From: a virus | Taxonomy: Duplodnaviria > Heunggongvirae > Uroviricota > Caudoviricetes | DNA length: 39,249 bases | Strand: one strand, 5' to 3' | IMG/VR virus record: IMGVR_UViG_2861079508_000003 | Span: 1-39,249 of that record | Shown here: in pieces, positions 2,497-17,529 of the stretch | Layout: the number at the start of each line of letters is the position of its first letter | Position numbering within the stretch: the first letter of the stretch is position 1 | Notes under the pieces: model-generated | Told to the model about the DNA's origin: nothing | The model's database searches: none | The model's input: the letters and a program-made list of their open reading frames with translations, nothing else | Translations under genes and position numbers: made by a program

Positions 2497-3185
2497 TACT
2501 CACCTCCTTTGATGCGAATGCCAGCGGCACGGGAATCATTCCATCGCTTTACTTCTTCACGAATTACGTCAATGCATTCTTTCGAATCCATTAGGTAATC
2601 TTCATCAAAAAGCCTTTCCTGTTCGTTTTCTATCGCAACAATGATTGCTTCAACTAACTTTTGTGCCTGAGAACCACTTTCTAACTCTGCAATGCGCTTC
2701 TCTGCGGCTTCCAGCTTCTCGCGCATATCGTCAACGTACTCGACCAGAGAACCGCCAGCAGGAATTTCGCACTCCTCGACCAGTTGGAAGTAGATATCAG
2801 CTGCGGCCCGTGTGTTGCTATACCTAGCGTCGCCCATCTCACCTTCACGAAGAGCATCGCGTTCGGCGGTAAGATTGGCTATTTTGCTGTCTTTGCCTTC
2901 CAGCTCAACGCGCAGCTTCCAAACCGTAAGCGCAATCTCCTCGTTCTCCTGATCGCGGCTTTTGATGTATTGCAGGTTTCTTTCCCGTTCATCCAGCAGT
3001 GCCAGCACGGTTTCTGGTCCGGTCAGAAATTTGAAGGCGTTGAGCGCATCAATATCCACACCGTAATCTTTAAGTTCCTGTTCACTTAACAAGTCATCAT
3101 CAGCTGGCAACATTAACAGGCGTTCCATTGCTGGAATTGCACGTTCCGCCGCCTCACGCAGCGCCTGATAGTCAATCTTGCTCAC
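2496..3185 (-). CDS. Ead/Ea22-like coiled-coil protein (229 aa)
   Basis: Acidic, coiled-coil-rich protein in the int-proximal accessory region; resembles recalled Ea22 family proteins. 4-nt overlap with upstream gene. Confidence 0.5.
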   Translation of the reverse strand: MSKIDYQALREAAERAIPAMERLLMLPADDDLLSEQELKDYGVDIDALNAFKFLTGPETVLALLDERERNLQYIKSRDQENEEIALTVWKLRVELEGKDSKIANLTAERDALREGEMGDARYSNTRAAADIYFQLVEECEIPAGGSLVEYVDDMREKLEAAEKRIAELESGSQAQKLVEAIIVAIENEQERLFDEDYLMDSKECIDVIREEVKRWNDSRAAGIRIKGGE

Positions 3186-3733
3186 TGGTTGCCTCCTTTG
3201 CGAAGCTGGTCGGCGAACAAACGTACACCAGACGCTTCACTGCGTAGAAACTTAACGGCATAATCAAAACCACCTCGTTCTGCGTCGTCTGCTCCGTTGT
3301 CGAGGTTATCTGCGTACATCTCTACCCCCTGCGCCCGTACTTCAGCCAGGAAAGCATCGGTGGCTGGGGTTTCGATATCGTTAATTTCAGGAAGAATCTC
3401 TTCCCATGTGGCGATATCGCCATTCAAATGCCATCCGGCAATTCCACTGGAGTTATCCGCAACACTGCGAACGGCTTCAATAGTTTCGAGCATTACCGCA
3501 TTCTCCGCCGCAAGCGCCGAAAACTTCTCGTGTGCCAACTTAACAGCCGCATCAGCCTGCTTAATTGACTCAATCGCTTTCTGGTGGTCTTCGGACAGAG
3601 CCGAAATCTTGGCCTCCGCTTCAGCAAATTTACGCACCAGATATTCAGCGTTTGTTTCGTTAACCTTTAAATCTCGTGGGATGCATTTACCTTTCAGAAA
3701 ACCATCTATCTCAATTAGTGACATTTGTTTCAT
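3182..3733 (-). CDS. Ead/Ea22-like protein (183 aa)
   Basis: Similar composition and position to the neighbouring Ea22-like gene; coupled start/stop overlaps. Confidence 0.5.
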
Positions 3734-3894
3734 TTCTTCCCACTCCGCAACATCGCATTCAGATATTTGTTTTGATTCACTGATGGAAAAGAATTTCTCT
3801 TAAGCAATTCCTCTCTCGATGGCATTGGCTTTACGCGTTGGCGAATAATCATTTCTGCCGGAAGAATGCCGGGATTGTATGCAAGTCCTCTCAT
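3730..3894 (-). CDS. Hypothetical small protein (about 54 aa), not in ORF track
   Basis: ATG overlaps the stop of the 96-aa gene and its stop overlaps the start of the next gene (ATGA at both ends). Confidence 0.3.
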
Positions 3895-4181
3895 GATTTA
3901 CTCTCCACGAACTGGTCAACGGCCATGCTAAGTGACACACCTAAAGTCTCGATATGCTGCTGAATATCCTGTAGCGTCTGCGCCTGAGATAACAGGATTT
4001 CACGGTTGCATAATTCTTTAACCAGATGCTCAAACTTGCTGTAATAACCGATACGGCTTAGTGTTTCTTTCCCTGCATTCTCGCCTTCTTTGATAATTCC
4101 TCTTTCGCTAAGAATCAGATCGTGTTTGGTTCCGGTAATAACGTATTTGCCTAGGTCGATGTTTAGCTTCATTGTTTTCAT
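3891..4181 (-). CDS. Hypothetical protein (96 aa)
   Basis: ORF-track ORF in operon orientation immediately downstream of abc2; no family recognised. Confidence 0.45.
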
Positions 4182-4191
4182 TGTTAATTAC

Positions 4192-4485
4192 TCAGTCATT
4201 ACTGATAGCGCCATAGCGTGAGCGGTAATTACGCAGGCGCGGGTCAATTTCAGGGAAGTGGGTATATGTGGCTTTGCGGAATGGTCGGATTGATGTCTGG
4301 TAAATTCGCTCTCGTTCTTCTTTCTCTGCAAGCCATATACAGTGGCGAAATTCCTTTTCCTCTTTCGTTTCCTGCGGTAGCGACATTATCCGATCGTAGT
4401 TTCTTCTGAATTTATCCAGCACCTCCGATACGGAATTGCCGGAACAGCGGCGCGGGTCATCCGCACCATACAGAGGCGCTGGCAT
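4192..4485 (-). CDS. abc2: Anti-RecBCD protein Abc2 (97 aa)
   Basis: Near-identical over its length to the P22 Abc2 sequence as I recall it (MPAPLYGADDPRRCSGNSVSEVLDKFRRNYD...); expected position next to erf. Confidence 0.8.
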   Translation of the reverse strand: MPAPLYGADDPRRCSGNSVSEVLDKFRRNYDRIMSLPQETKEEKEFRHCIWLAEKEERERIYQTSIRPFRKATYTHFPEIDPRLRNYRSRYGAISND

Positions 4486-4508
4486 AATGGAATCCTTATT
4501 TTGCTAAT

Positions 4509-4892
4509 CTAGAATGGAATTGAATCGTCGTATTCAGGATGATTTTGATGATTGCTACTTTGCTGCTGTTGGCTGTTTCCTGAAGCTGCAAATCCAATCT
4601 TCGCATTCAGTAATTCAAGAGTGATTGATTGACCATTTTGCCCCTGATAAACATCAACCCTGATGTTTTCTCCGGTAATTTCTACAATGCCACCTTCAAC
4701 AAGAACACTACGGTAGTAATCCGCTTGCGCTCCCGGCTTGGCAAATACAACGGCGCTGTAGTTTGTCCATTCTTTCTTTTTTGTCTGGCGATCGTAATAC
4801 TGAACGCCAGCACGGATGTTGAATCCGATATTTTCCCCGGCCTGAAACTCTCTTGCGGGTTTGTTTAGTCTTACAGTAATCGAATGTGCCAT
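4509..4892 (-). CDS. ssb: Phage single-stranded DNA-binding protein (127 aa from internal ATG)
   Basis: C-terminal acidic tip ..PEYDDSIPF matches the SSB DDDIPF tail, preceded by a Gly/Gln-rich linker; ATG overlaps the erf stop (TAATG). Confidence 0.7.
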   Translation of the reverse strand: MAHSITVRLNKPAREFQAGENIGFNIRAGVQYYDRQTKKKEWTNYSAVVFAKPGAQADYYRSVLVEGGIVEITGENIRVDVYQGQNGQSITLELLNAKIGFAASGNSQQQQSSNHQNHPEYDDSIPF

Positions 4893-5497
4893 TAAGCAGC
4901 CGCTCCTTCTAATTCGTCTCGTCTGATGTTGTAAACGTCCTGCGCTTTGTGCTGCTCCGGTGTGCCTTCGAGCATCTTCCACGCTTTGGCGAACGCCTGT
5001 TTAAGCTCTTCTACGGTGTTTTTCTGCAATGCTGCGTCAGTGAATGCTTTTAGAACCTGTTCAGGTGTAGGTGATGGTTTTGATTGCTTTGCTGCTGCGT
5101 TCTGCTGATGTTTATGCTCGTCGGTATCTGCATCTTTCGCATCATCAATGCCGAACAAACCATTGAGGCAATACTTGCGTGCATAAGAGCTTGTAGCTCC
5201 AGTAACTTGTGCAGAATCCATTCCTTTCTTGCTTTCTTCCTCTCGTGCAAGAGCGGTTGCCGTATGACTGTTTTCGCCATCGGTAATAGTTGCCGTGGCT
5301 TTCACATAATACCGATCACCAATCAACACAACTTCATCGCTGATTGATAAAAACAGGCCATTCAGTAACGGCTTAACGCCTTCAAGAATGTCTTCGCAGC
5401 TTCTGTATTTATATTTACCGAATGAGTTGTACTGATTTTTTGGCGCATTCAGATTCTCCTGAATGGCTGCCAGTCTTGCGTAAAATTCTTTGCTCAT
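4892..5497 (-). CDS. erf: Essential recombination function protein Erf (single-strand annealing protein)
   Basis: From ATG at 5497 the N-terminus MSKEFYARLAAIQENLNAPKNQYNSFGKYKYRSCEDILEGVKPLL.. closely matches recalled P22 Erf; the track's longer form starts at an upstream alternative codon. Confidence 0.85.
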   Translation of the reverse strand: MSKEFYARLAAIQENLNAPKNQYNSFGKYKYRSCEDILEGVKPLLNGLFLSISDEVVLIGDRYYVKATATITDGENSHTATALAREEESKKGMDSAQVTGATSSYARKYCLNGLFGIDDAKDADTDEHKHQQNAAAKQSKPSPTPEQVLKAFTDAALQKNTVEELKQAFAKAWKMLEGTPEQHKAQDVYNIRRDELEGAAA

Positions 5498-5598
5498 ATG
5501 TTTGTTCTCAGAATGGACATTCCCCAAGGAAATAACGCTGATTTAATACTTCGACTCGGGACAAATTAAGGCATACCAGCATTCCTTCGCGGTCGCCA

Positions 5599-5757
5599 TT
5601 ATGGCGATACCAGAGAGCTTTCTGCGTGTACATGCGTCTCTGTAACTTGCTCTCCTTCACTGTGGTTGCAAGTGACATGAATATCTCCTTCGTTACCGAT
5701 TAATTCTTTCATCTGACGAATGAATTCTTCGTCTGACCAGTTATCTGTAAAACTCAT
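5599..5757 (-). CDS. Hypothetical small protein at the kil position (about 52 aa)
   Basis: Internal ATG overlaps the cIII stop (ATGA); in lambdoid phages the gene after cIII is kil. Function inferred from position only. Confidence 0.35.
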   Translation of the reverse strand: MSFTDNWSDEEFIRQMKELIGNEGDIHVTCNHSEGEQVTETHVHAESSLVSP

Positions 5758-15346: not shown

Positions 15347-15531
15347 ACGCCACAATTCAAACGATACCAGAGCTTCTTATCCAGACACGAGGCAATCAGA
15401 CCGAAGTGGCAAGGATGCTTTCCTGCGCAAGAGGAACAGTGCTCAAGTACAACCGAGACAGCAAAGGCGAGCGTCACGTAATAGTTAACGGCGTCCTGAT
15501 GGTCAAACAGGGCAAGAGGGGAAGACGATGA
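15343..15531 (+). CDS. ninH: NinH protein (62 aa)
   Basis: ..GNQTEVARMLSCARGTVLKYNRD..VIVNGVLMV.. parallels lambda NinH (..GNQTEVARRLKCSRGTVRKYVDD..AIVNDVLMV..). Confidence 0.7.
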   Translation: MNATIQTIPELLIQTRGNQTEVARMLSCARGTVLKYNRDSKGERHVIVNGVLMVKQGKRGRR

Positions 15532-16046
15532 GCATAAGAGAACTAAACCTCACCAAAGAACAGCACGATTGGCTGAATGGCTGGCTTGAACTGTGGGGAG
15601 CATGGGTTTATTCAGGTCGTCTGGAAAAGCGCATGAGCAGCGTAATAGCTAAGTTCATGGAGAGCGTAGAGCCGGGAAGAGTTATGACAAGGCCAATGTG
15701 TAATGATGATGATGGAATGTTGATTTCTCAGGTCGTCGATTCCGTCATGTACATTGACAAGAAAGCCTTTGGCATCCTCCTCAGCTACTACGCTCATGGT
15801 TCATCTAAGCGAGCAATTGCATCCTACTATCACGCGACTGCAAAGCCACGCAAGATGTGTGGACGTGGTGGCGAGGGATGGAGAAAACCTTCACTGGCAA
15901 CCTGTAGAAACGAAATTGACGACATCCTGAAAGCGTCATTATTTGTTTTATACCAGCCAATGCAAAATGCTTTCAAAATGCGTAAACGTGTTGAGAAAGT
16001 TAAGCATGTTGCCGTTAAAAGCCTTGACATGCAATTAGCCATTTAG
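15528..16046 (+). CDS. Q: Late-gene antitermination protein Q (non-lambda Q family; 172 aa)
   Basis: Last gene before the late promoter and lysis genes; resembles antiterminator Q proteins of the phage-82 type from memory; a promoter and close terminator follow. Confidence 0.65.
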   Translation: MSIRELNLTKEQHDWLNGWLELWGAWVYSGRLEKRMSSVIAKFMESVEPGRVMTRPMCNDDDGMLISQVVDSVMYIDKKAFGILLSYYAHGSSKRAIASYYHATAKPRKMCGRGGEGWRKPSLATCRNEIDDILKASLFVLYQPMQNAFKMRKRVEKVKHVAVKSLDMQLAI

Positions 16047-16053
16047 CCATAAT
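16024..16053 (+). promoter_or_regulatory. Putative late promoter PR' (-35 TTGACA, about 18-bp spacer, -10 CATAAT)
   Basis: Consensus -35 hexamer overlapping the last codons of Q, with a good -10, as for lambdoid PR'. Confidence 0.5.
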
Positions 16054-16096
16054 ATTCACATATGCTGCTGCTTTTGCATTCAGCAACCATCACAAG

Positions 16097-16118
16097 CCCA
16101 CCTCCTGTGGGTTTTTTT
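16097..16118 (+). terminator. Putative tR' terminator downstream of PR'
   Basis: Hairpin CCCAC-CTCCT-GTGGG followed by TTTTTTT about 50 nt downstream of the predicted start. Confidence 0.55.
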
Positions 16119-16240
16119 GCATTCGCGTGCAATCAAAACAAGAGTCTTAGTGATATGGGCCTGAGATATGGTGGTGGAAACATCGCTCCGCTCTTGGCTG
16201 TCATATCTACGCGAACAGGCTCTATCCCTAAGGTAAAGCG

Positions 16241-16753
16241 ATGAAAGAAATAAAATTAACGCCAGAAATGGTGCTTTCTGTTGTTGATTACAATCCATCA
16301 TCAGGCGACTTTCACTGGAGATGGAGGCAGGGGAGAGAGAGGACCACTTTGACATGGAACTCTCGTTTTGCTTTCAAGAAATGCTCATCAATAAATTCTG
16401 ATGGGTATTTAATGATTATGATTAATGGTAAAGCATACCCTGCTCACAGACTGGCATGGTTGATTGTTTATGGCACCATGCCCGATGGTTTTATTGATCA
16501 CATCAACAGGGTAAGAACAGATAACCGGATATCAAATCTTCGTCTTGTCACTCATTCCGAAAATATGCAAAACAGGAAAATTCAGAAGAATAATAAATCT
16601 GGATACCGTGGCGTGTCTTGGGATGCTAAGTACGGGAAATGGAGAGCAAGAATTAATGCGTCTGGAAAGTGTATTAACCTTGGATACCATGACACTGCCG
16701 AACTTGCCGCTGCGGCTTTTGAGGCAGCCAGAATGAAATATCATACCGTTTAA
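16241..16753 (+). CDS. HNH homing-endonuclease-like protein with AP2-type domain (170 aa)
   Basis: ..AHRLAWLIVYGTMPDGFIDHINRVRTDNRISNLRLVTHSENMQNR.. (HNH_3) plus ..SGYRGVSWDAKYGKWRARI..GYHDTAELAAAAFEAA.. (AP2-like); inserted in the late-operon leader. Confidence 0.75.
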   Translation: MKEIKLTPEMVLSVVDYNPSSGDFHWRWRQGRERTTLTWNSRFAFKKCSSINSDGYLMIMINGKAYPAHRLAWLIVYGTMPDGFIDHINRVRTDNRISNLRLVTHSENMQNRKIQKNNKSGYRGVSWDAKYGKWRARINASGKCINLGYHDTAELAAAAFEAARMKYHTV

Positions 16754-16807
16754 AGATGTAAGCTGCCGTTAGTGACTCTTAAGTTGCAACGGTGGCTTTT
16801 TTTATTT

Positions 16808-16882
16808 GGGTCAGTCGTATAAAGGTCATTACGGAAGGCTGTTAACCTTCTTATCGTGGTTCGAGTCCACGCTGTCCCGCCA
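16808..16882 (+). tRNA. tRNA-Asn (anticodon GTT), putative
   Basis: Hand-folded cloverleaf: 7-bp acceptor stem (one U-U mismatch), D-arm with GG, anticodon loop CTGTTAA, T-arm CGTGG-TTCGAGT-CCACG, discriminator G and encoded CCA. Confidence 0.5.
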
Positions 16883-16887
16883 AATAT

Positions 16888-16963
16888 GCTGGTTTAGCTC
16901 CAATGGTAGAGCAGTCGCCTTGTAAGCGAATGGGTAGCGGTTCAAGTCCGTTAACCAGCACCA
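16888..16963 (+). tRNA. tRNA-Thr (anticodon TGT), putative
   Basis: Hand-folded cloverleaf: acceptor GCTGGTT/AACCAGC, D-stem GCTC/GAGC, anticodon loop CTTGTAA, T-arm AGCGG-TTCAAGT-CCGTT, discriminator A and encoded CCA; 76 nt. Confidence 0.6.
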
Positions 16964-17050
16964 TAACTGAGCCGTAGCCACTGGCTATCCTGAATTCATC
17001 AGTGATAGTTACGCTGCGGCCTTCTACACATGACCTTCGTGAAAGCGGGT

Positions 17051-17085
17051 GGCAAGAGGTTGCGCTAACAACCTCCTGCCGTTTT
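17051..17085 (+). other. Conserved stem-loop in the late-mRNA leader upstream of S
   Basis: 12-bp stem with one mismatch (GGCAAGAGGTTG...CAACCTCCTGCC) followed by GTTTTGCCC; region 16966-17205 matches what I recall of the lambda sequence preceding S. Confidence 0.4.
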
Positions 17086-17205
17086 GCCCGTGCATATCGG
17101 TCACGAACAAATCTGATTACTAAACACAGTAGCCTGGATTTGTTCTATCAGTAATCGACCTTATTCCTAATTAAATAGAGCAAATCCCCTTATTGGGGGT
17201 AAGAC

Positions 17206-17529
17206 ATGAAGATGCCAGAAAAACATGACCTGTTAGCCGCCATTCTCGCGGCAAAGGAACAAGGCATCGGAGCAATCCTTGCGTTTGCAATGGCGTACCT
17301 TCGCGGCAGATATAATGGCGGTGCGTTTACAAAAACAGTAATCGACGCAACGATGTGCGCCATTATCGCCTGGTTCATTCGTGACCTTCTCGACTTCGCC
17401 GGACTAAGTAGCAATCTCGCTTATATAACGAGCGTGTTCATCGGCTACATCGGTACTGACTCGATTGGTTCGCTTATCAAACGCTTCGCTGCTAAAAAAG
17501 CCGGAGTAGAAGATGGTGGAAATCAATAA
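17206..17529 (+). CDS. S: Holin, lambda S type (107 aa, dual-start Met1/Met3)
   Basis: [62 protein letters not shown].. is essentially identical to recalled lambda S. Confidence 0.95.

Follow-up and report, generated by a model that had tools for sequence, protein, structure and literature searches.

Why should a temperate phage carry just one or two tRNA genes? The question is raised anew by a tRNA-Asn and tRNA-Thr pair lying ahead of the lysis genes in the genome examined here, for which the whole stretch of 39,249 nucleotides (hereafter the window) was analysed. The window represents a P22-like E. coli phage genome with a mosaic relation to IME10 and others. The tRNA pair itself is already known and has been described before (PMC3636060; PMC8022706), its annotation being routine and reaching back, in papers and GenBank records alike, to phage 21 and Sf6. 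The value of the locus is that of a test case for the question above: the exact tRNA-Thr(UGU) encoded here has newly been reported to defeat the P2 OLD tRNase, its neighbour is of the other isoacceptor, Asn(GUU), that PARIS targets besides tRNA-Lys, and a cassette of this kind in a tractable lambdoid system could separate the fifty-year-old explanation by codon supply from the newer one by nuclease escape. Added here are an HNH/AP2 gene with a second terminator between PR' and tR', and the nuclease-escape lead on function.

Two intact tRNA genes

Across the whole 39 kb window ARAGORN called exactly two tRNAs, both on the plus strand, namely tRNA-Asn(GUU) at 16808..16882 (75 nt) and tRNA-Thr(UGU) at 16888..16963 (76 nt), each with an encoded CCA and each also recognised by Rfam. 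The original prediction had placed a tandem tRNA-Asn(GTT) and tRNA-Thr(TGT) at precisely these coordinates and had proposed running tRNA software over the region; ARAGORN and Rfam agree with it on both genes. Against a gathering score of 29 for RF00005, the tRNA-Asn scored 55.3 bits (E = 2e-9) and the tRNA-Thr 61.5 bits (E = 4e-11), both matches spanning model positions 1-71 of 71, and the minimum-free-energy structure is the cloverleaf for tRNA-Asn and tRNA-Thr alike. The T-arms (GGTTCGAGTCC and GGTTCAAGTCC), the 7-bp acceptor stems, U33, A37 and the encoded CCA, all listed in the same prediction, were each found to be correct. A 50-aa open reading frame on the minus strand (16829-16981) falls within the tRNAs and was dismissed as spurious.

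Identity elements for E. coli AsnRS are G34, U35, U36 and G73, and those for E. coli ThrRS are G1-C72, C2-G71, G35 and U36; all of these textbook elements were found in the respective phage tRNA sequences. Some departures from the canonical structure were also observed. The tRNA-Asn has a U4.U69 mismatch in the acceptor stem (16811/16875), which is the one acceptor-stem mismatch noted beforehand, together with a U13.U22 mismatch and a variable loop of 4 nt, and it retains U8, A14, G18-G19, U54-U55-C56 and A58. As U4.U69 is the conserved state in more than 100 related loci, it gives no sign of decay. In the tRNA-Thr, C14 (window position 16901) replaces the near-universal A14, and there is a G27.A43 mismatch; among the related loci position 14 is a T in four and an A in none. 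C14 is probably tolerated in this tRNA, because an identical tRNA is reported to be active in vivo (July 2026 preprint on OLD). It is close to certain that both are genuine tRNA genes, for Asn(GUU) and Thr(UGU), functional and members of a known cassette.

The late leader and expression of the pair

The pair had been predicted to lie after the late promoter region and ahead of the gene for a lambda-type S holin, and this location was borne out. A gene for a late antiterminator Q of the phage 21/Sf6 type (15528..16046, plus strand; Pfam Phage_antitermQ, E = 1.3e-25) corresponds in position to Sf6 gene 59 and to the HK629 Q gene. The late promoter PR' (16024..16053, plus strand), with a -35 element of TTGACA and a -10 element of CATAAT, agrees with the consensus at 11 of 12 positions and contains a Q-binding element (ATTAGCCA/TTTAGCCA) at about 16034-16049, promoter and element being identical to those annotated in Sf6. 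Leader A follows on the same strand (16060..16120); its inferred start near 16060 and its pause-element-like TATGCTG (16061-16067) were placed by alignment to the annotated transcription start and SDPE of phage 21, and it includes a first intrinsic terminator (16094-16120) made up of a stem at 16094-16114 and a T-run, with a fold of -19.1 kcal/mol (z = -2.85). Leader A is common to HK629 and the PhiR12 phages.

An HNH/AP2 endonuclease gene (16241..16753, plus strand; Pfam HNH_3, 2e-18, and AP2, 1.6e-8) is inserted in the late leader, and is context and not part of the tRNA cassette. Its product is 39% identical to HegE (F-TflV) of T5, one of the homing endonucleases scattered among the T5 tRNA genes, and the gene is absent at the corresponding position of phage 21 and Sf6. 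After it, a second, partial copy of the leader starts at a TAAGCTG pause element and carries the phage-21-type tR' (16760..16807, plus strand), which consists of a hairpin at 16760-16798 and a U-tract at 16797-16803, then AUUU. This terminator, with a fold of -20.2 kcal/mol (z = -5.1), is identical to the one annotated in phage 21 (PMID 1704887) and Sf6, and its U-tract ends 4 nt ahead of tRNA-Asn. The late leader of the window contains two terminators, and its pause-element region is duplicated, while phage 21 and Sf6 have the order PR', transcription start, pause element, tR', tRNA-Asn, tRNA-Thr and holin. The earlier view that the tRNAs lie downstream of PR', tR' and an HNH gene stands, and only the layout had to be refined, with PR' upstream of the HNH gene and terminators flanking that gene on both sides. 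Such a split leader, with HNH/AP2 and its own terminator between PR' and tR', was found elsewhere only in HK629, where the tRNAs are absent, and in 36 of 5426 E. coli genomes, E2348/69 among them. The PhiR12 phages share the leader but have only the first 22 codons of the HNH/AP2 open reading frame.

The right boundary of the cassette is a lambda-type S leader (16964..17205, plus strand), 97% identical to lambda 44945-45195 and common to Sf6, HK629 and HK446, after which lambda-type S, R, Rz and Rz1 follow. Holin S, lambda-type with a dual start (17206..17529, plus strand; Pfam Phage_holin_3_1, E = 2.4e-30), is the first protein-coding gene of the late operon and begins 242 nt past tRNA-Thr.

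A promoter scan of 15900-17300 returned no plus-strand sigma-70-like site besides PR'. Given that no promoter-like site is present from PR' to the tRNAs, and that these start 4 nt after the tR' U-tract, Q-mediated read-through should be needed, here of two terminators. The tRNAs would have no promoter of their own; transcription from PR' would reach them only if RNA polymerase, modified by Q, passes the terminator(s), so that they would appear along with the lysis and virion mRNAs. Their release would then fall to host RNase P and 3' trimming, and their charging to host AsnRS and ThrRS. The BTP1 transcriptome paper, in which the two tRNA genes were set aside from the list of highly expressed prophage genes and the late operon was placed 'directly after' them, gives a description compatible with late co-transcription, not a test of it.

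A transcriptome paper on the Kapi1 lysogen reported signal antisense to the tRNAs and cited a similar BTP1 signal between the tRNAs and the holin gene. The Kapi1 cassette is identical to that of the window, and the antisense region corresponds to about 16800-17205 on the minus strand. A consensus scan found no minus-strand promoter or terminator near the tRNAs, and the BTP1 antisense RNA STnc6030 maps to the tailspike region, not to this one.

Distribution and variation of the cassette

Matches to the 241 bp at 16760-17000 were found in 92 phage records (73 at 95% identity or more), among them phage 21, Sf6, SfI, BTP1, HK446 and numerous P22-like phages of Salmonella. Of 5426 complete E. coli genomes, 976 (18%) also contain this stretch, there usually annotated as tRNA-Asn and tRNA-Thr. 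The original prediction had stated that tRNAs of this kind are known at the same position in lambdoid phages, and rightly so, as the pair is annotated in phage 21, Sf6, SfI, BTP1 and numerous others. In these phages and in HK446 the region at 16760-17000 is 98-100% identical to that of the window, with the same anticodons and the same order of tR', Asn, a 5-nt spacer, Thr and lysis genes, and both tRNAs are 100% identical in HK446, phage 21 and Sf6; the window differs in its leader, split by the HNH/AP2 gene and the upstream terminator. In Stx phages such as 933W, the tRNA genes ileZ-argN-argO lie downstream of PR' and have classically been explained by rare-codon supply. They resemble the present pair as tRNA genes in a lambdoid late leader, between Q/PR' and the first late genes, but they decode AUA, AGA and AGG, which are the most strongly enriched codons of the window too and for which its cassette has no tRNA. 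According to the phage L paper, tRNAs are present at this place in some P22-like phages, not in P22.

Two short MAG contigs, one from Segatella copri (L130) and one from Collinsella (L138), also carry the enterobacterial phage tRNA pair and are most likely mis-binned E. coli phage fragments. A genome-collection scan returned 15 matches to an 18-mer in unrelated bacteria, of which nine are without any tRNA and were put down to chance.

Variation was surveyed with an exact 32-mer of tRNA-Asn, which recovered 119 viral contigs; 115 loci were usable, including a few from the genome scan. Asn-Thr was by far the commonest arrangement (101 loci), with Asn and Gly(UCC) in eight, Asn-Thr-Gly in one, Asn alone in three and no tRNA called in two. 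Upstream of the cassette lie intrinsic terminators of at least three unrelated types, that of phage 21, that of lambda (found in HK446) and a third. The phage 21 and lambda types, which account for about 110 of the 115 loci, have a TTTTTTATTT junction to tRNA-Asn, from which the single third-type locus differs, and the right flank is constant among loci. In lambda (44787-44944) and HK629 (L004, 2300-2490) about 160-190 bp of unrelated DNA fill the same slot, whose boundaries in the tRNA-less phages are the tR' T-run and AACTGAGCCGTAGCC. The presence of unrelated DNA between the same boundaries indicates that the tRNA pair is a cleanly exchangeable cassette.

Beyond the 32 nt used for the search, tRNA-Asn hardly varies across the 115 loci with their different leaders, and the U4.U69 mismatch is the majority state, a pair being restored in only three loci. 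In tRNA-Thr, compensatory changes were observed (several variants have U-A for G5-C68, and Flyfo siphovirus Tbat2_3 has C-G for U3-A70), and these point to purifying selection. Covariation supports both cloverleaves: over 29 distinct variants, pairing holds in 92% of cells and seven pairs are altered on both sides, a count somewhat inflated by several double changes that stem from one allele chimeric with host thrU; none of 500 shuffles reached the observed level, and slid controls gave 29-51%.

Some variant cassettes deserve separate mention. Tbat2_3 (L009, 901-1138) has a tRNA-Phe(GAA) between Asn and Thr, and an unrelated terminator ahead. In ST64T (L008, 901-1052) and phage L, the second tRNA has Thr-type acceptor ends and a different anticodon arm; the phage L paper gives a tRNAscan-SE reading of UAA/Leu for it, and ARAGORN makes no call. 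In nine loci (L111, L017, L037, L082, L083, L093, L101, L113 and L135; about 230-385 of each oriented segment) a chimeric tRNA-Thr was found, in which the 5' 26 nt are of phage type and the 3' 50 nt match E. coli thrU completely or almost so; a tRNA-Gly(UCC) comes next, identical to host glyT at 71-74 of 75 positions. Most of these loci have since lost two anticodon-stem pairs of the chimeric Thr, which ARAGORN then fails to call. Judged from the sequences, the chimeric Thr and the Gly look like a capture from the host thrU-tyrU-glyT operon by recombination within tRNA-Thr. Gly(UCC) is itself an OLD target, but with this appearance of host-operon capture the variant cassettes were rejected as independent support for a counter-defence role.

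Possible roles of the pair

In a July 2026 preprint, P2 OLD was identified as a tRNase that depletes Thr(UGU), Gly(UCC), fMet, Val(UAC) and Pro(UGG) and cuts after nucleotides 27-29. Plasmid-borne Thr(UGU) from T4, Bas32, Bas33 and HK446 restored the plating of HK97, HK542 and Bas34 on OLD+ cells almost fully, whereas E. coli thrU gave no restoration of phage plating, and stability of the tRNA under OLD was directly shown only for that of Bas32 (July 2026 preprint). The HK446 Thr(UGU) tested in that work is identical to the tRNA-Thr of the window; the HK446 GenBank record has no tRNAs annotated and the preprint makes no mention of the adjacent tRNA-Asn. The second nuclease of relevance is the PARIS effector AriB, with Lys(UUU), Thr(UGU) and, less strongly, Asn(GUU) as reported targets. 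AriB cuts between positions 40 and 41, beside U36-A-A-U39, and in tRNA-Lys its cleavage is abolished by U39>A and inhibited by A41>C. Retron Ec78/PtuAB was set aside as not relevant, its target being tRNA-Tyr.

At the positions that matter to these nucleases the phage tRNAs differ from those of the host. Read from U36, the window Thr has UAAGCG against UAAUCA in host thrU and the window Asn has UAACCU against UAAUCC in host asnT; U39 is replaced by G in Thr and by C in Asn, and position 41 is also changed. The window tRNA-Thr further differs from thrU at 27-29, where OLD cuts. Substitutions at the cleavage positions are not specific evidence, because the phage tRNAs differ elsewhere too, with only 44-55 identical positions of about 76 between window and host tRNAs and differences throughout. 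The anticodon loops (CUGUUAA and CUUGUAA) are identical in phage and host and the differences lie in the stems, which rules out escape via anticodon-loop mutations; an eLife paper on such mutations contained nothing specific on Asn or Thr. In four of the five coliphage lineages examined, the host A31-U39 pair has become G-C or C-G in each of Asn and Thr.

It is proposed that the pair would serve as spare tRNAs sustaining late translation when TOPRIM tRNases such as P2 OLD and PARIS AriB destroy host Thr(UGU) and Asn(GUU), the phage copies differing from the host tRNAs where these nucleases may depend on sequence. Extra capacity for reading ACA, a codon rare in the host and common in the phage, would then be a secondary benefit. 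This reading, nuclease escape with ACA supply as a secondary gain, is favoured here over codon supply alone, with our confidence in it evenly balanced. Both phage tRNAs may resist AriB, and the tRNA-Asn may have a part in such a role. A more specific version, in which the Asn-Thr pair is a matched counter-defence cassette of temperate phages against the TOPRIM tRNases of P2/P4-type elements and the Asn covers the secondary PARIS target, is offered tentatively, as somewhat less likely than not. If it holds, the position behind tR' would time the tRNA supply to the late, translation-heavy phase of infection.

Several observations count against a counter-defence role. No tRNA-Lys(UUU), which PARIS targets first and foremost, is present in the cassette, nor are four of the five tRNAs that OLD attacks, and a single Thr(UGU) neither rescued lambda nor relieved OLD toxicity (July 2026 preprint). 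The OLD evidence comes from a preprint and from plasmid expression, not from the native late-operon copy, and late expression may miss an abortive system that is triggered early. Phage and host tRNAs differ everywhere, not just at the nuclease sites, and ACA enrichment offers a simpler explanation. HK446 may not need its tRNA, as it also has a candidate protein that inhibits OLD. The recombination locus of the window (3185-5757, minus strand) is nearly identical to that of HK446, with Erf at 99.5% (4895-5497), gp31 at 98% and Abc2 at 97% (4195-4485). Provided that the gp numbers of the preprint equal the HK446 locus tags, the locus also holds a counterpart of Gp33 (88%; 5602-5757), reported as a P2 OLD trigger, which speaks for the counter-defence reading, and one of the reported OLD inhibitor candidate Oad2 (HK446_027), the latter only 40% identical (3185-3733).

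Codon supplementation alone would mean that the late genes overuse ACA, read by a single-copy host thrU, and the Asn codons, and that the extra tRNAs speed virion protein synthesis. The codon comparison suggested in the original prediction did place both ACA and the Asn codons of the late genes above the host level. Relative to a host reference of 42 E. coli K-12 genes, ACA is enriched 3.5 times in the late genes (19.0 per 1000, or 33% of Thr codons, against 5.4 and 10%; Fisher p = 4e-19) and the Asn codons stand at 54.7 against 37.7 per 1000. ACA also has the largest absolute count among the host-rare codons (166), and lambda, without the cassette, uses ACA at a host-like 11.5%. E. coli has four tRNA-Asn genes, which speaks against a need for a further one. 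AGA, AGG and AUA are enriched more strongly than ACA (7.8, 8.2 and 3.7 times), yet no tRNA is provided for them, and P22, without tRNAs, uses ACA at 21.9%, above the 17.3% of the cassette-bearing SfI. Codon supply was favoured in the published papers on SfI (ACA 17.3% against 7.1%) and phage L, in the latter of which 24 of the 25 coat-protein Asn codons were AAC; the SfI authors saw no Asn bias. Overexpressed thrU failed against OLD where the phage Thr succeeded, so the phage tRNA is more than extra supply. With this loose fit, codon supply as the sole explanation is held to be less likely than nuclease escape, while remaining a serious contender.

The other explanations considered fare less well. 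The pair could be a functional but nearly neutral passenger, spread by recombination between its conserved flanks, the T-run of tR' on one side and the S leader on the other, without meaningful benefit, as lambda, P22 and HK629 thrive without it and have unrelated DNA in the slot, the second tRNA of ST64T/L is altered and some loci keep Asn only; the near-invariance of tRNA-Asn over 115 loci, the compensatory changes in tRNA-Thr that indicate purifying selection, the presence of the pair in 18% of complete E. coli genomes and its recurrence in unrelated phage families make this improbable. That the tRNAs act as punctuation in RNA processing, providing RNase P sites that detach the Q-loading leader and set the 5' end and stability of the late mRNA, would suit their invariant position straight after tR' and ahead of the first late gene. 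It is nevertheless very improbable, given that lambda, P22 and HK629 have no tRNA and still express the same S leader, that the anticodons and synthetase identity elements show a conservation for which punctuation alone gives no need, and that an identical Thr acts in trans from a plasmid. Hardly any weight attaches to the view that the sequences are pseudogenes or tRNA-like relics unused in translation: the two stem mismatches and 4-nt variable loop of tRNA-Asn and the C14 and G27.A43 of tRNA-Thr might suggest it, but the scores are far over the Rfam threshold, the mismatches are the conserved state and the identical Thr rescues infection, for which it would have to be charged and to decode. 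The host tRNA-Thr gene thrW reads Thr(CGU), not UGU, which tells against compensation for a host tRNA gene disrupted by integration, an idea that we regard as just as remote; it was put forward for HK446 in the discussion of the OLD preprint, HK446 integrating into thrW. In HK446, attP (20.9 kb) and the cassette (35.1 kb) are 14 kb apart, and this distance argues against such compensation; an attP of this kind rebuilds an intact thrW on integration (phage L paper), and the cassette sits behind the late terminator(s) together with an unrelated tRNA-Asn.

Returning to nuclease escape, the same isoacceptors appear among the resistant tRNAs of virulent phages, those of T5 against PARIS (Lys, Thr and Asn) and those of T4, Bas32 and Bas33 against OLD (Thr(UGU)), and in T5 the host A31-U39 pair is likewise replaced by G-C or C-G. 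Unlike these phages, the phage of the window is temperate and has two tRNAs only, with no tRNA-Lys, in the late operon rather than under early or own promoters. Asn(GUU) and Thr(UGU) also recur together in P1-like and N4-like phages, whose tRNA sets are very small: RCS47 (P1-like; L146, 1425-1578) has them in tandem, and AlfredRasser (N4-like; L148, 1337-1586) as Asn-Ser-Thr-Pro; were the counter-defence proposal true, this recurrence would reflect the same selection pressure. Their Thr is identical to that of the window at 61-67 of 77 positions, closer than host thrU (53 of 77), while the phages belong to unrelated families and the contexts are unrelated, their tRNA-Asn matches at only 42-45 of 76 positions, and the P1-like Asn keeps U39.
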